DNA from: Eledone cirrhosa
Lineage: Eukaryota
Direction of reading: 5' to 3'
Assembly (NCBI GenBank): GCA_964016885.1
Contig: OZ024750.1
Span: forward strand, 29,326,001-29,390,000
Length of the DNA: 64,000 nucleotides
Both the position numbers and the translations under genes were made by a program. The stretch's first letter is position 1; the number at the start of each line of letters is the position of its first letter. The notes under the pieces are model-generated. The model saw nothing but the letters and a program-made list of their open reading frames with translations, searched no databases and was not told where the DNA came from. Shown one piece after another: positions 326 to 63,198 of the stretch.

Positions 326-745
326 TGGGGAATTAACAGAGTCGTTAGAGCGACGGAATCTGTTGTGACTTTCTACATTGTGAGTTCAAATCCCGCTGAA
401 GTTCACTTTGCCTTTCATCCTTACGGTATCGATAAAATAAAGTACCAGTACTGCACGGGAGTCGATTTAATCGACTCCCCCAAAATTGTTGACCTTGTGT
501 CTAAATCAGAAACCGTTATTAAGATGTCGTACATTGGCGAAATTGTTACAGTGTCGGAGAAAATGCTTTGCGGCATTTAATTACGATTTTCTGTTTTGAG
601 TTCAAATCCCGTGGAGGTTAACTTTACCTTTCATCCTTCCTATGTCGCTAAAATAAAGTACCAGTTAAATACTAATATGGATATAAGAGACTTTCCCTTT
701 CCCCACAAAATTGTAGGCCTTGTGCCTAAATTAAAAACCATTATT
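326..745 (+). mobile_element. Two tRNA-derived SINE copies, family A
   Basis: B-box gagttcaaatccc followed by the core gcctttcatccttacggggtcgataaaataaagtaccag, which recurs more than 20 times in the window. Confidence 0.8.
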
Positions 746-1154
746 GTTGTTATTGTTGTAATCTGGTGATAATTAAAGGGAAGTAAGTCATTTTTGAAAG
801 GGAAATAATTATTTACCAGCTTTGGAAGGGAAGTAACTTTTAATAGTGGCGTTGTATTTGTTTTGCAAGGTTTTTGATATGAAATTGTGTGTTGAAACAG
901 ATATTGAAAAACTATATTTATATTTATATTTTAAACTGTTGGACAATCAATGATAAACATTAATTGCCAGCTAAATTATTTATAGAAATATGAAAATATA
1001 CTGAAGCGAAAACCAAACCAAACAGTGAGTGTGTTTTTCTATACAACATGACCCTCTCCAAATATAACAATAACTTTTAATAAGCTTCGATCTAAACAAG
1101 AGGAGTATCTTTTAACAAGACTTGATTTTTGGAATAATATATATCTGTGTGTGT

Positions 1155-1480
1155 GTGTAGCTTAGTGGTTAGAAAATTGGCTTCACAATCGTGAGGTTGT
1201 GAGTTCGATTCCCAGAGCAGACAGTGTGTTGTATTCTTCAACAGGACACTTGTTTCACATTACTCCAGTTCACCTAGCTGTAGAAATGAATTGCAACGTC
1301 ACTAGTACCAAGCTGTGTCGGCCATTACCTTCCCTTGGACAACATCGGTGGCGTGGAGAGCGGAAACTGGTATGCATGGGTGACTGCTGGTTTTCCTCAA
1401 ACAATTCTACCCAAACTTGTGCCTCGGTGGGGAACATTCTAAGTGCAAATCCCATAGTAATTCGGAATTTGTTGTTTAGG
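1155..1480 (+). mobile_element. tRNA-derived SINE, family B (CORE/V-like centre); others at 15140-15290 -, 17553-17850 +, 18897-19170 +, 22630-22960 -, 38480-38620 -, 42481-42760 -, 52400-52720 -, 57290-57545 -
   Basis: tagtggttag A box, gagttcgattcc B box, and gtgttcttgagcaagacactt...cagctgtagaaatga body. Confidence 0.75.
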
Positions 1481-2037
1481 ACCAGGTCATTTAAGAATTA
1501 CGCATGTTAGTTTGTTTGTTTTTCTGACATAACGTATCTAGGGCTAGTTTAATATTCAATGTGTCCTATTTTAAGACGGTAATATGTGATTTGGTTGCTA
1601 TTTCTAGTAGGACGGTCAACCATGTAGTGGCTCATTCTATAGATATTGTAAATACATGGGGATAATTATTCGTAGTGGAGTATATAAATAGGGGAAATAA
1701 ATCTTTTTGGTAAATGATTTCTTCTGAGATCGCGTGTTGAATGTAAAACAGTCTACATTTTAGCCATTAAAAACAACAAAAAACAAAACTAGAAAAACTG
1801 TTCTAGTCATTTGTCATGTATCTCGGTAACTGTTGATAAGATTTCTATAAATTGCTTTACAATATTTTTTTGTGTATTATATTTGTGAGGTTCCTAGCAA
1901 TAATTAATTGCATTTATTATATGTGTTTATACTTGTATTTATATTTTCATTCTGTAAGGATTATAAACAAATTGTGATGTTTATAGAACTGTGAATAAAA
2001 ACTGTAAAGTTTTTAAATTCTATTCTTAGGATAAGCC

Positions 2038-2154
2038 ATGGAAAACCCTTTACTGGTTCTGCAGGAAATATTAATGAAAACTCAACATGTACACCACGCT
2101 GCAATTATTGATATTCGGAGTAATATGGTAAAGGCTTCTTCGATTGGTTTTATG
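2038..2154 (+). CDS. PFN4: Profilin-4-like protein, coding exon 1 (MENPLLVLQEILMKTQHVHHAAIIDIRSNMVKASSIGFM)
   Basis: Manual translation. Acceptor ttcttag at 2023-2029, gccATGg Kozak context, donor gt at 2155, 117 nt phase 0. Resembles the PFN4 N-terminus (L..T.HV..AA.I......AS.GF). Confidence 0.9.
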
Positions 2155-2384
2155 GTACATAAGTGATTGATTTCTTGTTACTTAACACAAACAAAGACTT
2201 GGTCTATCATAGATTAGGCATAGTTGATTGAATTGACGCAAATACATTACAAAATAGACAAAACTTCCCAATAAACCCAGAAAGATTTGAATTTAGAATG
2301 AAGAGAGACAAAAGTAAGTGCTTTACTATTGGGTTCTCTCATTTCTGGTAATTTGATGCCTTTATCATAGTTATTATTTTATCC

Positions 2385-2825
2385 AGAGCTGGTGGATTGG
2401 CAGAATCGGTAGACCATCGGACAAAATGTTTTGTGTCATATAGTTATCATAATTATTATTTTATCCAGAGCTTAACCTTGGCGGGATTTGAACTTGGCCC
2501 TTTATGGTCTGAGTTCAAATCCGCCGAGGTTAACTTTGCCTTTCATCCTTACGGGGTCGATAAAATAAAGTACCAGTAATGTACTGGTAATTTCTGGCCT
2601 TGTGCCAAAAGTAGAAACAATTATTTTATCCAGAGCTGGTGGATTGGCAGAATCGGTAGAGCATCGGACAATATGTTTTGTGGCATATAGTTACGGTCAT
2701 TTACGCTCTGAGTTCATTCAAATCTCAGTTTAAAACCCACTGTGGTTAATTTTGTTTGTCACCCTTAAGGGGTCGATAAAATAAAGTATCAGTAATGCAC
2801 TGGAATCCATTTAAACAATTATCTT
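2385..2825 (+). mobile_element. Family A SINE copies (more at 3775-4445)
   Basis: Same A/B boxes and core. Confidence 0.8.
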
Positions 2826-3061
2826 ATCCAGAGCCTGTATTCTGAAGTTCATCATCATCCTCATCATCATTTAACGTCTATCTTCCACGCTAGCATGGGT
2901 TAGACGAGAATTGTCCTACTGGAGGCAAGAATGATCGGGTGACTGTATCTTGCTTGTATAGGACTGTATCTGGCAGGTTTTCTATGGCTGGATGACCTTC
3001 CTAACACCAACCATATTTACAGTGTGGACTGGGAGCCTTTTTACTGTGTCTTCTACACGAT

Positions 3062-3260
3062 CACTTTACAGCGTGGACTGGGTGCTTTTTGTCGTGACAC
3101 CTACATGACCACTTTACAGCGTGGACTGGGTGCTTTTTGTCGTGACACCTACATGACCACTTTACAGCGTGGACTGGGTGCTTTTTGTCGTGACACCTAC
3201 ATGACCACTTTACAGCGTAGACTGGGTGATTTTTGTTGTGACACCTACATGACCACTTTA
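3062..3260. repeat. 48-bp minisatellite, about 4 copies, amplified inside a family C element
   Basis: Unit cactttacagcgtggactgggtgctttttgtcgtgacacctacatgac. Confidence 0.9.
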
Positions 3261-3537
3261 GTGTTGATTGGATGTTCTGTGGTACCAACATAACTTTACA
3301 GAGAAAGGGTGGTGTGGGTGGTAGTGGGAGAATGGAGTAGGGGTTGTGGGTTGAAGTTACAATAATCAAATAAATATGACTTGGAAAATGAAAGAAAATA
3401 TGAGAGAAAAAATAATTTAGTACTATCATAATATCACCACTCCAGTGTTCTATATCCAAACAGTATATAAGCTGTATCAATACAGTATATAAGCTGTATC
3501 AATACAGTATATAAGCTGTATCAATACAGAGTAAGTA

Positions 3538-3587
3538 AATACCACTGATGATGGATTAAAAATTCTGAAACACTACTGTCTGCCATT
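3538..3587 (+). ncRNA. Degenerate hammerhead motif in PFN4 intron (stem I broken)
   Basis: AATACCA-CTGATGA-T GGATT AAA AATTC T-GAA-ACA CTAC TGT-C-TGCCATT; GUC site; two mismatches in stem I. Confidence 0.5.
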
Positions 3588-3935
3588 CTCACAGCTACTG
3601 AGATAGCTGTGACATGATCACAGCTTAAAACATTTATAGCGAGACTTATATATGTATATTATACATAAATATATCATATATGCCATAATATATACCTCTA
3701 TCATAAACTATACTGTTGTATTGTAACTGATAAATAATTTCTTCTTTTATTATATGCAATGGATTGTTTTATTTTAGGGCAGTGGATTGGCAGTTATCGG
3801 TAGAGCGTTGGACATGTTTCGTGGCATAGAGTTACGGCCCTTTGCGTACCGAGTTCAAATCCTGCCAAGGTTAACTTTGCCTGTCATCCTTACGGGGTCA
3901 ATAAAATAAAGCACCATTAATGCACTGGGGTTGAT

Positions 3936-4148
3936 TTAAGCCTTTAGCATTTACATTACTTTATATTTATTTTTGTATTTTCACAGTAAAGACTTTATCT
4001 CACATAGTATTGAAGCTAGATTTTGTTGTTATTTATTTTGAGAACATTATCTTAACATTAGTATGAGTGGCCAATTATGGCTGGTTTGAACAGAAAGAGG
4101 TGAGAGAATCCTGGCCGGATACGGCCAGTTTAAATGCTAAAGGGTTAA
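3936..4148. mobile_element. TTAA-targeting (piggyBac-like) MITE nested in a SINE
   Basis: TIR (c)cctttagcatt...aatgctaaaggg flanked by TTAA. It splits the SINE motif gatttaa|ttgacccc. Confidence 0.85.
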
Positions 4149-4463
4149 TTGACCCCCCCCCCCCCCCCAATTGCTGGCCTTGTGTCTATAGTAGAAATCA
4201 TTATATGCTGTGGATAAGGGTGGTAGACTGGCATTATCAGTAGAGTGTCAAAGCATGAGACAACATGCTTTGCGGTATATAGTTACAACTCTATACATTC
4301 TGAGTTCAAATCCTGCTGAAGTTAGCTTTGCCTTTCATCCTTACGGCATTGACAAAATAAAGTACCAGTAATGCACTGGGGTCAATTTAATCAACATTTC
4401 CCTGCACCAAAATTGTTGGTCTTGTGTCTACATCACAAACCATTATATGTTTCTTCTTTGTAG

Positions 4464-4598
4464 TTGGATTATAAAGATATTGCAAGTTTTGAGTATGCTT
4501 TCAAAAACCCAATGTTGGTCAGAGAAAAAGGACTGGAGTATAATAAACTCACATATTCTGTAACTCGAGCTGAACCAGACACAGTTTATGCTAAGATG
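4464..4598 (+). CDS. PFN4: Profilin-4-like, coding exon 2 (LDYKDIASFEYAFKNPMLVREKGLEYNKLTYSVTRAEPDTVYAKM)
   Basis: Acceptor ttcttctttgtag, donor gtgagt, 135 nt open frame phase 0/0. Matches the PFN4 F.KNP...R..GL......Y...RA.....YAK pattern. Confidence 0.92.
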
Positions 4599-4769
4599 GT
4601 GAGTAGTTTCTTTATCCTTTTGAAAGTTAATCTATGTGTGTAATGTGTTATGTCTTTATGCATAAACGAATACACTGCAGCAGTTTAATAACAATACAAT
4701 CAAAACAAACGGCAATAACCACACGTAACGGAACAACAATCTTTTAAGAACCAACAATCCAACACACTA

Positions 4770-5349
4770 ACTCGAACTGTGAACTTGAACTCCAACTTTG
4801 ACTATCAACACACGAACTGTGGAACTAGTACCAACTTTGACTATCAACACACGAACTATGGAACTAGTACCAACTTTGACTATCAACACATGAACTGTGG
4901 AACTAGTACCAACTTTGACTATCAACACACGAACTGTGGAACTAGTACCAACTTTGACTATTAACACACGAACTGTGGAACTAGTACCAGCTTCGCCTAT
5001 CAACACACGAACTGTGGAACTAGTACCAACTTTGACTATCAACACACGAACTGTGGAACTAGTACCAACTTTGACTATCAACACACGAACTGTGGAACTA
5101 GTACCAACTTTGACTATCAACACACGAACTGTGGAACTAGTACCAACTTTGACTATCAACACACGAACTGTGGAACTAGTACCAACTTTGACTATCAACA
5201 CACCAACTGTGGAACTAGTACCAACTTTGACTATCAACACACGAACTGTGGAATTAGTACCAACTTTGACTATCAACACACGAACTGTGGAACTAGTACC
5301 AACTTTGACTATCAACACACGAACTGTGGAACTCGTACCAACTTTGACG
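4770..5349. repeat. 39-bp minisatellite, about 15 copies
   Basis: Unit ccaactttgactatcaacacacgaactgtggaactagta. Confidence 0.95.
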
Positions 5350-5540
5350 ATTTTTTTCTCCAGCAGTCGCATATCCTCTGCAGTTCCTGCCCATGTCTCA
5401 CTACCATGCAGCATCATGCACCTCACACAGGCATCATATAACCGGCCACTCGTATGCAGGGAGAAACCCTTCTTCATCAGCAGAGGAAGCATCTCCCTAA
5501 ACTTCTTCCAACCCGTCCTTATTCTAGATACTATGGCTTA
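5350..5540 (-). mobile_element. RTE-type LINE ORF2 fragment
   Basis: Translation ...RTGWKKFREMLPLL..KGFSL...GRLYDACVRCMMLHGSETW, typical of the region after RT in RTE LINEs. Confidence 0.8.
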
Positions 5541-12681: not shown

Positions 12682-13212
12682 TTATTCTGCTGGAGTCTCA
12701 CCATTGTTGCTGTGTGGTGAGTTGTCCAAATCAGTTGATAAATCAACCAAGTCTGAAACTTCATGTACAATCACTTCAGTCGTATTAACATTTATAGCAT
12801 CTACCTCACCTGTGTCACTGTTGAAGTCGTTAACTCCATTGCCGTTTTCAACAGAAATATTCGATGTCTTCTCTGACAATTCTTCAACATTATTTACCAC
12901 TTCCTGAACTTCCACTTCCACTCCATCATTCATGTTGTCTATCTCATCATTTCCTTGTTCTTCTTCTTCTTCTTCTTCTTGTTCTGGTTCTTCTGGTTTG
13001 AAGTCCAATACAATGTCGTTTGGAATTGTAAGTGTTGTTGTCTCTTTCATAAGAGTTGCTTCTATTCCATGGACTTGAGCTTTCTTCTGATAATGACCAA
13101 TAATGACAGGATCCGTTGGGCAGGTGTTAATGAATGCCTCAGCTTTGTAAGCATTTTCAATGTACCTCCACAAATAAACCAAGTCATGTGGGATATCATA
13201 ACCCTTCAGTTT
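12682..13212 (-). CDS. Clic: CLIC homolog, last exon (KLKGYDIPHDLVYLWRYIENAYKAEAFINTCPTDPVIIGHY... plus acidic tail)
   Basis: Acceptor ctctttccag, in frame with ORF 12682..13182. IP..L..LWRY..AY..EAF..TCP.D..I..HY motif. 531 nt including stop. Confidence 0.93.
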   Translation of the reverse strand, partial: KLKGYDIPHDLVYLWRYIENAYKAEAFINTCPTDPVIIGHYQKKAQVHGIEATLMKETTTLTIPNDIVLDFKPEEPEQEEEEEEEQGNDEIDNMNDGVEVEVQEVVNNVEELSEKTSNISVENGNGVNDFNSDTGEVDAINVNTTEVIVHEVSDLVDLSTDLDNSPHSNNGETPAE

Positions 13213-14130: not shown

Positions 14131-15425
14131 TGTGAGAAAGAAAGAAAGTTAAATTAAATTGAATTATAAAACAAAAGTTAATAAGTTGACCTTTATAGCA
14201 GATCAGGTCACCATTGTAGAAGTGGTTCAAAGTAAAGTTTGTTCCAAGGCCAGAGGCTCATCAGACTGGAGCTTATCCCAGTTTTATTGGTGCTAACCAA
14301 CTGCGAGAACATAACTACACACCTGGACAGGATGCCAGTCCATTGCAAGGTAAATCTCCAGCAGCTACTAAAACATAATTTTTCAGCTGAGTAACCTGAA
14401 GCAACATAAAAATGAAGTAATTTGCTCAAGGTATACTGTACCACCTCTTGACTTGTCTCATAACATGACAGTTCATCTAACTCATGCAATCATAGAAAAT
14501 GGACATTAAATGAGGATGCTGATGATAGAGATATATACACACGCGCATGCGTGTGTGTGCGTGCGTGTGCGCGTACGTATGCATTTATGATGATGATCAT
14601 CACTATTTTCCATGCTAGATGATATCATGTTCTGAAGCTAGACCAGTAAGGTTACTCTGTCTTGTTCATATATTCCATTTTTGGCTTGGTCTCTACGACT
14701 GGATGCCCTTCCTAATGTCAACTTCTTTACAGCTTATACTGGAATTATTTTATTGTGAATCCAGCACCACAACCATCATACAAGAGGAACTGGGTTCTTT
14801 TCTTTGTGGCACCAGAACTACAACTTTACAGAGTGGGCTGGGTACATTTTTATCATGTCACCATCACTGGGGAGGCATTAATAAGAGTGTGTGTGACGGG
14901 GGAGAGAGCTATACCTCCTGATGATGTCACTACGGTGTACCTGAGACTCCATCATCATCATCATCATTTTACGTCCGCTTTTCCCTGCTTGCAAGGGTGG
15001 GACGGGAACCGGTTCTGGCTTGATTTCTACAGCTGGATGCCCTTCCTAACACCAACCTCATTTACAGTGTGGGCTGGGTGCTTTTTTTCCGTGGCACCTC
15101 CACGGACCACTTTACAGTGGAATGATATGGAGCCCAGTCCTATCATCTCATTTCTACAGCTGAGTGAACTGGAGCAATGTGAAATAAAGTGTCTTGCTCA
15201 AGGAAACAACACATCACCCGGTCTGAGAATTGAACTCACAACTTTTCGATTGCAAGGCCAATGCTCTAACCACTAAACCATGTGCCTCCATACATACAGC
15301 ATATATTAGTCATTTCAAAGCTGACAAAGTCCACTCCTCAACTGTCATCTGATTAATCTGTTTAATAAAACACAAATATAAACAAGATATATTAAAAGAA
15401 AATCTAAGTAAAAAAACAAACTTAC

Positions 15426-15596
15426 TTTGCCAGCCAACTTGACATGGTGTAAACGAGGCAGTAGGACACAATCCGCATAGGTCAATTGATCACCAATTAT
15501 AAACTTGGTTCCGTTCTCTTTCAGATGGTCGTTTAAATTACGCATTATGTCGCTCAGTTTTTTTGAATGACCAGTTGTGAGGAATGTGTTGAAGAG
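15426..15596 (-). CDS. Clic: CLIC homolog, middle exon (LFNTFLTTGHSKKLSDIMRNLNDHLKENGTKFIIGDQLTYADCVLLPRLHHVKLAGK)
   Basis: Acceptor tttgtag, donor gtaagt, 171 nt phase 0/0. F..GD.LT.ADC.LLP.LH is the CLIC/GST C-domain signature. Confidence 0.95.
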
Positions 15597-22464: not shown

Positions 22465-23446
22465 TATTTGATAAAATTTAAATACATTAATGTAACAATT
22501 ATAAAAATATTTATTCTTTGGATTAAAGAAACAAATAATCTTTAAATATACCCTGCGTTTTCTACTTTACTTTTTACCTATAATCTTCATTTTGTATAGA
22601 ACTTGCCCCATTTTCCAACTATATATAAAGACACCCTTCGGTCATGAACGACCATGGGATTTGTACCGAGAAAGTCCCCCGTCAAGGAACAACTCCAGGT
22701 AAGGTTGTTTGTTGAAGACTAGCAGTTGCCATTGCATACAAGTCTCTCCTCCCTATGACACTAATGTTGTCAACAGGAAAGGCAAAGGCCAATACAGTTT
22801 GGCACCAGAGATGTCGCAACTCATTTCTACAGCTGAGCAAACTGGAGCAACATGAAATAAAGTGGCTTGCTCAAGGACACAACGTATCAAACAGTCCAAT
22901 AATTGAACTCACAACCTCACTATTGCAAGACCAATGCTCTAATCACTAAGCAGTGCACCTCCACCAACTATATATATATATCATCATCATCATCATCATC
23001 ATCATTTAACGTCCATTTTTCACACAGGCATGGGTTAGATGAGCTGTCCTATTGTGAGACAAGCCAGGTCGGAAGACTGTGTTTTGCTCACACAGAACTG
23101 ATTTTGGCTTGGTTTCTTCGGTTGGATGCCCTTTCTAATGCCAACCACATTTACAGTGTGTGCTGGTTGCTTTTTGTCGTGACTCCTCATGACCACTTTA
23201 CAGTGTAGACTTTACGTTTTTATCGTGACTGCTACATGACCGCTTTACAGTATGGGCTGGATGTTTTTTATGATACCATAAACTTGAGTTTGTGGAAAAA
23301 TCACTGAGGCATCAATGTTGATGTTCAATATTTCATTTATCAATAATTATTAGTAATTTTAGTAATTCTAAGATGTCTTGATACAATGTAATAAACCAAA
23401 CAGAGGCCTTATCTAAACCAATAGAAGTGAGAATTTGTAAACTTAC

Positions 23447-23788
23447 CCTGTTAAGGTCGAGGAAAATATTGAGGGCTATAATCTGATCTGCAGCATCCAT
23501 TTTCAGTAAGGGGCATCTAAACTTCTGGAAGAACTGTTCAAGTTCACAGCTTTCATCAGCCACCATTCCTTCTACAGTGTCACCACTTTGTGCTTGCCCA
23601 GCAATACCAATGACAACTGGGAAAAGGCCACTAGAACTCTTTTCTCTGAGAATTTTAGGTGGGGAATTCTCTGGAACTGTAATCACTTTGAAACTGGCCA
23701 GTTTGTTCTCTGCCAGAATATAAGCCACCATATACCATTGTTGGCATAATGGACATGCTCCTTTGCTAACCTTGTCAATTACTGAGGC
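23447..23788 (-). CDS. Clic: Chloride intracellular channel (CLIC) homolog, N-terminal thioredoxin-domain exon (ASVIDKVSKGACPLCQQWYMVAYILAENKLASFKVITV...FLDLNR)
   Basis: Minus-strand acceptor ttttctag, donor gtaagt, 342 nt phase 0/0. AS.ID...KGAC..CQ...M..Y.LAE.K..S.KV.TV matches invertebrate CLICs. Confidence 0.92.
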
Positions 23789-30747: not shown

Positions 30748-30942
30748 ATTGGTGGATTGGCAGTATCGGTAGAGGGTCGGACGCCATGCTTTGCAGCATA
30801 GAGTTACGGCCCTTTACGGACTGACTTCAAATCCCGCCGAGGTTAACTTTGCCTTTCATCCTTACGGGGGTCGATAAAATAAAGTACCAGTAATACACTG
30901 GGATAAATGCTGGCCTTGTGCCAAAAGTAGAAACAATTATTA
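30748..30942 (+). mobile_element. Near full-length family A SINE (others at 19885-20118 +, 23845-24025 -, 32400-32800 -, 37128-37307 +, 45010-45155 -, 51720-52350 -, 61855-62035 +)
   Basis: tggcagtatcggtagag A box, B box, core and acaattatta tail. Confidence 0.85.
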
Positions 30943-31105
30943 TACTGGGAAGATTCTAAAGCGAGCTTAAAATTGTGTTTTTAGGATATATATATATTAT
31001 ATGTATGTGTGTAATCAGTTACATTGTTGTAACTGATTATACGTAACTAACACGTCCTATAGACCGAGTGCACAAAAACCCTTGAATATCTATACTAAGT
31101 TTTAT

Positions 31106-31342: not shown

Positions 31343-31413
31343 TATTTTATTATGCGCATTTCAAAAACAAATATCATCATGCAATAATATTTGTGTTTTC
31401 ATCAGATAAAACA
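31343..31413 (-). ncRNA. Type I hammerhead ribozyme motif, canonical core
   Basis: Minus strand: TGTTTTAT-CTGATGA-AAAC ACAAATATTATT GCAT GATGATATTTGT TTTT-GAA-ATGCGCAT-A-ATAAAATA. 8-bp stem I, long stem II, palindromic stem III, AUA site. Confidence 0.8.
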
Positions 31414-31506
31414 GGAAGACATGATATGAAGGTTAAAAAACACTTGTGGATAGTGCAGTTTTAAATCAACATATCTATATATATATACACGTATATATAT
31501 ATATAT

Positions 31507-31727
31507 ATTAAAATAACATTAAAGTTTAAGCCAATAATCGCTGCTTTCACCCTTAACGGGATCTTCTGAAACTAACAAAGTCAATCTGTAAACGCAGAAG
31601 TGGATATTTAAAAAAACGTTGCAACCGGAGAAAGAACTGCGTTTACAGATTGACTTTGTTAGTTTCAGAAGATCCCGTTAAGGGTGAAAGCAGCGATTCT
31701 TTGCTTAAACTTTAATCTGCTACTTTA

Positions 31728-31773
<46 letters not shown>

Positions 31774-32030
31774 ATAATAATAATAAAATTGAAGACTAAA
31801 ATCCAAAGAGGGCTCGATAAGGAAAAATATATATCAAATATATAAGAACCGTAGAGCAAATATTTATTAAATAACAGATTAAAGTTTAAGCAAAGAATCG
31901 CTGCTTTCACCCTTAACGGGATCTTCTGAAACTACTGCGTTTACAGATTGACTTTGTTAGTTTCAGAAGATCCCGTTAAAGGTGAAAGCAGCGATTCTTT
32001 GCTTAAACTTTAATCTGTTATTTAATAAAT
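31507..32030. repeat. Two adjacent palindromes of the same roughly 90-bp unit, separated and flanked by (TA)n
   Basis: First palindrome: arms end at 31597 and start at 31637 (39-bp spacer). Second palindrome: about 31860-31934 versus 31958-32030. Confidence 0.9.
31661..31711 (+). ncRNA. Hammerhead-like motif with variant core CAGAAGA (further copies at 31523-31573 -, 31883-31933 -, 31959-32009 +)
   Basis: AGTTT-CAGAAGA-T CCC GTTAA GGG T-GAA-AGCA..TGCT-T-AAACT. All three stems present; position 4 is A instead of U. Confidence 0.6.
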
Positions 32031-33414
32031 ATATATATATATATATCCTGCTAGCATGCCAAGAGACCAGCATGACCAACAAGTTGTGATCTTACCTGGC
32101 TAGACTACTACCTGCTCTTGCCTGACAACTTTATTAGAGAAACCAAGAGTGAGAGAAAAAGGGGGGGGGACCAAGAGAGAGGGAGAGAGAGAGTGTAAAG
32201 TGACCACCCAAGTCAGTTATAGTAACAACTATAAAGACAACATGATGGGTGTGGTGGTGGTGGTGGAAAGAGATCGTTGCGTTTAATGTTTACGATGACA
32301 GTAATTATAGTGGTAGAGGCGGTGGGTATGTCAACTCAAGGTAAAGAAAGAAGGAAATAGTCCTGACACAGTTGTAGTTTTTGTAGATGTTTTCACTTAA
32401 TAATAATTGTTTCTACTTTTGGCACAAGGCCAGCAAATATACCAGTTCATTACTGGTACTTTATTTTATCGACCCTGTAAGGATGAAAGGCAAAGTTAAC
32501 CTCGGAGGGATTTGAACTCAGAATGGCAAGGGCCGTAACTCAATGCGTCAAAGCATGGCGCCCGACCCTCTACCGATACTGCCGATCCACCGCCCTTAAT
32601 AATAATAATAATGGTTTCTGATTTAGGCACAAGGCCAGCAATTTGAAGGGAAGGGAAAAGTCGATTAAATCGACACCAGTGCATTACTGGTACTTCATTT
32701 TATCGACCCCTTAAAGATGAAAGGTAAAGTTAACCTCGGTAGGATTTGAACTCTATGCTGCGAAACATGTCCGACGCTCTACTGATTTTGCCAATCTACC
32801 GGACACCACTAACGACCTAAACAGTAAGAAGCAGTGTAGTTTAGCCATTCCATACAACATTCATTTACTTTACAACAGATGTTTCTCAAAGTCGTAAACA
32901 AAAACCTTACACACAAACGTGTATGGTTGTCTGTCTCTCTCTCTATAAGTGTCTATGTCAACCTGACTGTCTATCTGAGTCTCTCTCTCTCTCTTTCTAT
33001 CTATCTGTCTATGTTTGTCTCTGATTCTCTCTCTCTCTCTGTATCTATCTATGTGTATGTCTATCTACGACGTCCCCGCCTTCATGAAGCTATCCGAAAC
33101 ATACAAAGTGCAAAGTAGTCCATTTTTTCATATTTACTCAGTGACAGTGAAATAATTGAATAGCACGACTGAAAAGATAAACAGCTACTCTATTATTACA
33201 ACTAATAATGAATAATACACTATGACCACCACTACCACTGATACGACTACTACTACCGCCATTACTACTACTACTACCACTACCACTACCACTACTACTA
33301 CTGCTACTACTACATGTAATATTGAAACATTTTCATATTCTAATTACACTGTAAACAAAATCTCAGGTGTGTTTATAACTGAGGGACTTTAGAAAATATA
33401 TTGTTGACACTGGT

Positions 33415-62684: not shown

Positions 62685-62892
62685 AACTATAGTAGGTAAA
62701 GTCAATTTTTTAAAATTTATTTTGAAACTTTTTCATTATTTACTAAACCTTGTTTATATTTGTTCTGGCTCGTTAATTTATTAACCCGCCATTGAACCAC
62801 ATTGGCACTTGGTTGGACAATACATGCGTACCTTGGCGCCTTGTGCGTGAAGGGACGTATTTCATATTACTATATATATATATATATATGTT

Positions 62893-62923
<31 letters not shown>

Positions 62924-62926
62924 GTT

Positions 62927-62966
<40 letters not shown>

Positions 62967-62987
62967 TGTGTATATATATATATATAT

Positions 62988-63198
62988 GTATGGACACGTG
63001 ATGCGCATGAAAGTCGATAGCTGTATAACAAAGTGCAGGGCAATAAAGATAGACGGTAGCCACGGAATAGGCAGACCTAGAAAAACCTGGGACGAGCTGA
63101 TAAACTCCGACCTCACACACTTACACCTCTCCAAGACAATGTCACTGGACCGAGACCTTTGGCGGTACTCAGTAACAGAGAAGACCCGCCTTACCTAA
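62988..63198 (+). mobile_element. RTE LINE 3' fragment
   Basis: YGHVMRM...[15 protein letters not shown]...DRDLWR. Confidence 0.8.

Follow-up and report, generated by a model that had tools for sequence, protein, structure and literature searches.

A hammerhead motif with A4 in place of U4 is the majority form in a very high-copy octopod repeat, likely a Penelope-like element

Does a hammerhead motif that has lost the uridine of its CUGA turn represent a natural core variant, or a ribozyme that was inactivated and amplified afterwards? The question is raised by four hammerhead-shaped copies in the window, by which we mean the whole 64-kb stretch of contig OZ024750.1 of Eledone cirrhosa that was analysed. 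The animal DNA of the window is rich in AT and in microsatellites, and the copies lie in two head-to-head palindromes with (TA)n on their flanks. Palindrome 1 (arms 31471-31597/31637-31763, spacer of 39 nt) contains copies A (minus strand) and B (plus strand), and palindrome 2 (arms 31860-31934/31958-32032, spacer of 23 nt) contains copies C (minus strand) and D (plus strand). All four copies carry the core CAGAAGA and a CTT triplet (CUU in the RNA). The features of the locus are the following:

31507..31636, minus strand: copy A, a 5'-truncated element end extending over the 39-nt spacer (31598-31636); C3 of the core at 31568; one change disrupts stem III; (TA)n end, without tail
31637..31730, plus strand: copy B, a 5'-truncated element end, inverted relative to A, without tail; core C3 at 31666, A4 at 31667
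31731..31771, no strand: (TA)n run between the palindromes, likely target site
31772..31868, minus strand: optional 3' extension (the "tail", ~97 nt), at this locus on copy C alone
31869..31934, minus strand: copy C, truncated just 5' of stem I; hammerhead the same as in B; core C3 at 31928
31935..32026, plus strand: copy D, inverted relative to C; starts at the CTGCG point as in B; without tail; core C3 at 31964; private stem II G>A at 31980
~31476-31508 and 32027-32047: further (TA)n runs
31646..31719, plus strand: type I hammerhead-shaped motif of copy B
31646-31653/31712-31719: distal stem I of copy B, 8 bp, with a 7-nt bulge at 31654-31660
31661-31665/31707-31711: stem I of copy B; core at 31666-31672 (A4 = 31667)
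31674-31676/31682-31684: stem II of copy B; U.U opener 31673/31685; GAAA at 31686-31689
31689-31693/31701-31705: stem III of copy B; predicted cut after U17 = 31706

The original prediction had described in these copies an AGTTT/AAACT stem I, a CCC/GGG stem II opened by a U.U pair, the GAAA and an AGCA/TGCT stem III, all of which are present as described, and it had noted an A at U4 together with the CUU triplet in all four copies, which the sequence confirms. Its further statement that two copies carry single substitutions stands for one of them: over the 51-nt hammerhead B and C are identical and D has one change (the G>A in stem II), whereas A has two, one in loop 3 and one that breaks stem III. 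The three helices around the junction, with stem I open, are accordingly perfect in B and C and have one broken pair each in A and D. The residues C3, G5, A6, G8, A9, G12, A13, A14, A15.1-U16.1 and H17 are all present; U4 of the CUGA uridine turn is absent, its place being taken by A4 in each of the four copies. Beyond what had been claimed before, we recognise the 8-bp distal stem I behind a 7-nt bulge, the tail, the spacers as element sequence, and a carrier.

A relaxed CNGANGA hammerhead descriptor matched B and C in the real window and had no match in 150 dinucleotide shuffles of the 64 kb, searched on both strands; A and D were missed because of their stem changes, and the four local copies enter this chance estimate as a single independent motif. 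At gathering thresholds Rfam matched nothing in the window, and at E<=10 its 35 matches over 31400-32100 included no hammerhead family and went to generic hairpin models far below the gathering score.

In a folding model without tertiary terms, the constrained hammerhead fold of copy B has -12.4 kcal/mol as compared to -14.5 kcal/mol for the minimum free energy (MFE) fold, which places it 2.1 kcal/mol above the MFE with ~0.1% of the ensemble weight. The constrained fold would allow the bulged, extended stem I, and the scissile bond is predicted after 31706 in copy B, the same position at which it had been placed originally. Isolated copies fold no better than shuffles (z 0.07-0.57), and the palindromes fold at -117 to -138 kcal/mol. 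Whichever strand is transcribed, the antisense arm comes before the sense copy, so that a long hairpin is predicted in place of the ribozyme at this locus. An inhibitory pairing between core and loop 3 was ruled out (pair probabilities <=0.01).

Whether CAGAAGA or CTGAAGA is the consensus of the family had been left to a collection of genomic copies, and in the alignments of sequencing runs the A4 form is the majority. Four of the 23 listed runs (X1, X21, X5 and X8) were used and aligned to 31790-32145 at a likeness of at least 80%, a threshold that a sister family less than 80% alike would escape. X1 consists of whole-genome contigs of the window's species and X21 of raw reads from another sample with the same species label, and 13444 X1 contigs and 11412 X21 reads aligned to the locus. 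Over the element the summed depth in X1, which is not a copy number, came to 0.13-3.1 million, as compared to 6.13 in the unique flank; X21 had a depth of ~540-5400 per bin on the element against 82 at the RAD tag of the locus itself. The repeat family is very high-copy in the window's species, and we infer many thousands of genomic copies.

A U4 form would be read as T>A at 31927 (copy C) or as A>T at 31965 (copy D). Among the X1 sites that differ at 2% or more there is no T>A, and the two A>T sites are 31824 and 31980, so U4 stands below 2% in X1. For X21, where 59 weaker sites stand below those listed, neither 31927 nor 31965 is among the sites listed, though their neighbours 31923 and 31964 (6-8% change) are, which leaves U4 a small minority at most, and the sites listed for the four runs taken together include no U4 at all. 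A collapsed X5 contig with a depth of 126.5 has no difference over 31869-31934, that is, over copy C. Alleles at 31942, 31952 and 31956 (two in the stem I bulge and one outside the distal stem) occur in 50-66% of X21 reads and mark a second subfamily, likewise with no listed change at position 4. Since A4 is the family majority and is shared by two subfamilies, it is a family-wide variant and not local decay. Of the choice originally posed, between a variant core and a core inactivated and then amplified, the family-wide A4 has been established and a local mutation within a U4 family is rejected; the alignments do not separate the two readings that remain.

Five common segregating sites (31942, 31952, 31956, 31851 and an insertion behind 31868) all avoid paired and core positions, which is not significant given 57 constrained positions of 169 (P=0.12). 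Left out of this test were 31824 and 31980, at which this locus departs from most of the family (89% and 94% of reads differ, respectively); G is found at 31980 in 1145 of 1213 X21 reads, the G>A there being private to copy D. The remaining variation is mainly C>T and G>A, often at CpG, as in neutral decay. For stem covariation the runs give per-site shares, mostly of CpG transitions, a kind of data from which paired changes are unreadable. With most reads 90-99% like the locus, the family is young; its stems should be intact whether or not selection has acted, and their integrity is no proof of selection.

Family sequence is also contained in X5 (4 contigs) and X8 (11 records, mostly of 151 nt with a depth of 2-7.5), runs labelled as other organisms, for which carry-over at low level or diet is likelier than horizontal transfer. 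At 32089, in the unique flank, 81 of 82 X21 reads have a 3-base insertion relative to the window, an ordinary polymorphism.

What carries the motif? Reads on copy D run upstream into sequence that matches the 39-nt spacer of palindrome 1 in the direction of A (loose ends before 31931/31935 in 565 X21 reads and in 70+22 X1 contigs). Contigs in X5, 359 and 566 nt long, reach ~300-500 nt upstream of the hammerhead. Because reads continue upstream of D, the copies are 5'-truncated pieces of a longer element and the palindromes are asymmetric, the loop belonging to the longer arm. Two 3' ends are seen. One is a stop at 31869 into (TA)n-like sequence (2008 X21 reads and 152 X1 contigs), and at the other the ~97-nt tail continues, with an X21 depth of ~4100-5400 across 31790-31861 and 4176 reads that run past the ends of the aligned stretch; family-level depth covers the tail over 31790-31868, its end at ~31772 being taken from the start of the (TA)n run. 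The junction of copy D corresponds to palindrome 1 minus 62 nt, at a GAAA..A microhomology, and since B and D also share the CTGCG start, the two palindromes are likely not independent insertions.

By analogy, the carrier is likely the 3' end of a Penelope-like element (PLE), of or near the Hydra clade. PLEs are described as strongly truncated at the 5' end, with an inverted truncated copy alongside, a tail of 30-40 bp on one side and (TA)n targets (PMC8557442), and at the locus we find 5'-truncated copies with an adjacent inverted copy, an optional tail at one end and a preference for insertion in (TA)n, the tail of ~97 nt being longer than the published one. A PLE 3' end as carrier explains the double palindrome as an ordinary by-product. 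As for the canonical U4 hammerhead expected near the 3' end of such an element, the position of the motif fits and its core does not. Among the 53 open reading frames (ORFs) of the window none was recognised by eye as a PLE reverse transcriptase (RT)/GIY-YIG ORF, which would have its endonuclease domain at the C-terminus and, in Hydra, RWK, DKT and CxCX5C motifs, and because no RT or endonuclease ORF was recovered the PLE identity rests on architecture. Pattern scans of metagenomes, genome contigs and viral contigs recovered no full-length family copy, the scans of genome contigs and viral contigs having 0 matches each. The sole metagenome match (L001) is a chance match inside a bacterial-looking coding frame, without stems I or III. 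A Naiad origin was rejected by eye, the 3' ends of Naiad_Obim, Naiad_Ovul and Naiad_Omin being unlike the element.

The closest known system is that of the Hydra-clade PLEs in File S2 of Craig et al. (2021, PMC8557442), which likewise have a hammerhead near the 3' end, a (TA)n target (in 26 of 27 metadata rows), inverted truncated copies and an octopod host. In the Hydra-clade rows of that file a CNGA(A/T)GA-U, short stem II, U-GAAA layout with the U.U opener, like the present one, occurs in 14 of 26, and a U at the cut site, as U17 here, in 10 of 26; the U.U opener and the U at the cut site are common in Hydra-clade hammerheads and are therefore ordinary features. In contrast, all 26 rows have U4 and C15.2, as compared to A4 and G15.2-C16.2 here, and the 5-bp stem III with a 7-nt non-palindromic loop and the bulged distal stem I are also unlike the Hydra-clade hammerheads of the file. 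The hammerhead of Hydra-1_Obim (Octopus bimaculoides) has a different sequence and, by eye and motif search, shares none with the motif here; likeness to the published Hydra consensus sequences was judged in the same two ways. Of short element motifs compared with the supplement of Craig et al., none of five matched in one search and three of four were absent in another, the fourth (9 letters) having matched an unrelated GC-rich consensus.

Other systems share parts of this picture. Metazoan PLE minimal hammerheads occur as dual copies on opposite strands, 100-700 bp apart and mostly from truncated PLEs, and like the motif here they are of type I, with a short helix I, an extra base after A9 and low expected activity; they differ in that they have no stable helix III, act as dimers and include a described core variant U3-A8, whereas here stem III has 5 bp and the core has A4 (Cervera and De la Pena 2014, PMC4209133). 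The natural core variants reported by Perreault et al. (2011, PMC3088659), namely U4C, A6C, U3-A8 and U10.1-U11.1, also change an otherwise strictly conserved core position, and hammerheads are known to tolerate a U.U mismatch at 10.1/11.1. Each of those variants is a rare, isolated case, whereas A4 here is the majority form of a high-copy family, and U4A has 0 occurrences in the main text of that paper. The Poseidon element PAc of Anolis (Frangieh et al. 2024, PMC11167929) has an AT-rich target and two 3' ends (tail) downstream of its hammerhead, as here, and its tail has been traced to two internal RT start sites; it differs in a core described as canonical (C3 and G8 tested) and in an ORF that begins at stem II, while the hammerhead here has no sense-strand ATG. 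In O. vulgaris 336 recently active Penelope-like insertions are reported (PMC13282606).

Taken together, the account we favour, with moderate confidence, is that of four short end copies of a very abundant octopod repeat, likely a Hydra-clade PLE or one near it, in which A4 is the majority, cutting is predicted to be slow or absent, and amplification likely proceeded without efficient self-cleavage. A PLE RT/GIY-YIG protein would nick (TA)n DNA and begin to reverse-transcribe from either of two internal sites that lie 3' of the hammerhead, and the site used would decide whether an end has the tail. If synthesis then aborts early and switches strands, a 5'-truncated copy might be left head-to-head with a shorter inverted copy, the loop being the extra sequence of the longer one. 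The two palindromes, with their common CTGCG breakpoint, likely stem from one event or from local duplication followed by a 62-nt deletion, and U4>A may have arisen in a master lineage before the split of the two subfamilies and been tolerated thereafter. Against this account count the intact remainder of the core and the intact family stems, the common segregating sites that all avoid paired and core positions, the natural U4C variant, the lack of a recovered RT or endonuclease ORF, the differing hammerhead of Hydra-1_Obim and the tail of more than the published length.

Another view keeps the Penelope-like carrier and takes the A4 hammerhead for a working natural core variant that would process element RNA. 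The missing U-turn contacts would be made up for by a contact of loop 2 with the bulge of stem I, by the stability of the 5-bp stem III or by an element protein. In its favour, both subfamilies are fixed for A4, the remaining core letters and four helices are intact, and the G15.2-C16.2 start of stem III, set against C15.2 in 26 of 26 rows of the Hydra-clade file, would, given homology, count as a compensated difference. Some natural core variants are known to keep residual activity: U4C has low activity in vitro yet enough for viroid infectivity (PMC3088659), so position 4 is not absolutely closed, although U4 is contacted by the A6-N7 phosphate in the same paper's account. The PAc hammerhead cuts solely with protein present (PMC11167929), which makes a protein-assisted A4 variant conceivable. 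On the other side, passages of a deep mutagenesis study of a type III hammerhead describe low activity for CUGA-turn mutants, with second-site rescue confined to C3G/G8C (PMC9901934), and those passages and the two text supplements gave no activity value for U4A. Hammerhead catalytic mutants of PAc insert undiminished in vitro (PMC11167929), and Naiad PLEs proliferate without canonical hammerheads (PMC8557442). The model gives the hammerhead fold of copy B little of the ensemble and isolated copies no advantage over shuffles, and stem integrity in so young a family argues for selection no more here than above. CUU is a weak cleavage triplet in the general triplet ranking, and with the U.U opener it adds further weak features. 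By analogy with these cases we think the A4 ribozyme probably slow or dead and its activity doubtful; the literature favours a crippled ribozyme on an amplifying element over an active variant, and the working variant as a whole appears to us unlikely, if far from fanciful.

Alternatively, the repeat might not be a truncated autonomous PLE but a non-autonomous element, or one akin to non-LTR retrozymes, that would use the machinery of PLEs and pass through circular RNA. Non-LTR retrozymes, too, bring a high-copy type I hammerhead into an animal genome, and stem II of the axolotl HHR_Amex2 has a U.U at its base (Cervera and De la Pena 2020, PMC7229834); a very high copy number with no ORF recovered, strand-switch joints in reads that could reflect tandem copies, and the proposal that retrozymes are non-autonomous PLE derivatives (bioRxiv 10.64898/2026.07.22.740005) would agree with such an origin. 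We nevertheless hold it to be quite improbable, since retrozymes are head-to-tail tandem repeats (PMC7229834) whereas the copies here are head-to-head, 5'-truncated and tailed with two 3' ends, no head-to-tail array of 150-450 nt is present at this locus, the X5 contigs extend well upstream of the hammerhead, and a circular-RNA cycle requires an active ribozyme. Two hairpin units in TA-rich DNA could also suggest a MITE or foldback DNA transposon, the hammerhead likeness of its terminal inverted repeat being accidental. This has already been largely refuted and we give it hardly any weight: the two arms are unequal and both derive from a single longer element that runs in one direction, most reads on D go into spacer-type upstream sequence and not into an inverted arm, a fixed unit with constant ends is absent and the joints vary in reads, the shuffles contained no descriptor match, and the position of the motif is that of the Hydra PLE hammerheads in the published rows.

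Returning to the truncated PLE ends that we favour, palindromic stubs of this kind are ordinary and known, and a fixed A4 in a high-copy family is new as far as we found. No U4A hammerhead family appeared in the literature searched, whose coverage is thin for subscription papers, figures and work on PLE variants (Lünse et al. 2017), so such a family may already be in print. As to the role of PLE hammerheads, it is described as an open question whether transposition requires them or they travel as passengers (PMC8557442), and in vitro insertion does without them (PMC11167929). A young family of very high copy number in which a core change is fixed represents a natural experiment on this need. 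If the A4 hammerhead is dead, a PLE family has been amplified massively without self-cleavage. If instead it were catalytically active through its extended stem I or an element protein, for which the chances seem to us rather low, it would be one of the most abundant ribozymes of the octopod genome and the first natural U4A hammerhead family found in the literature searched. The hammerhead consensus and the descriptors used in genome searches would then need widening at position 4, as CUGANGA descriptors miss the A4 form, and variant cores would then be suspected in some of the PLE families described as lacking a ribozyme.

Elsewhere in the window, short frames at 5380-5537 (minus strand) and 62851-63198 (plus strand) presumably resemble the C-terminal end of RTE-type LINE proteins, and the former adjoins a tandem repeat of 39-nt period. 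Pfam had no match in any of the five frames submitted, these two included. A coding stretch at 23420-23788 (minus strand) shares 77% identity with chloride intracellular channels of the exc-4-like type from Octopus bimaculoides and Argonauta hians (5 matches among 176 candidates), and a splice acceptor precedes the exon at 23788:

12685-13209, 15384-15593 and 23408-23788, minus strand: exons of an exc-4-like chloride intracellular channel

The first coding exon of this gene (10 codons) was not found within the 64-kb window, so either the first intron exceeds 40 kb or the exon has diverged. The hammerhead copies thus probably sit in intron 1 of an octopod exc-4-like gene transcribed from the minus strand. 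As the hairpins are predicted to outcompete the ribozyme fold, no effect of cleavage on the host pre-mRNA would be expected, and as long intronic hairpins the palindromes would be double-stranded RNA substrates for editing.

The whole locus is also flanked by two inverted copies of a SINE-like repeat, at 30751-30943 and 32400-32591, which are 89-93% complementary and ~1.5 kb apart, with a further copy at 32603-32753. We take this repeat to be an octopus OR/OK-type SINE, and its inverted pair represents another potential long double-stranded RNA inside the intron.
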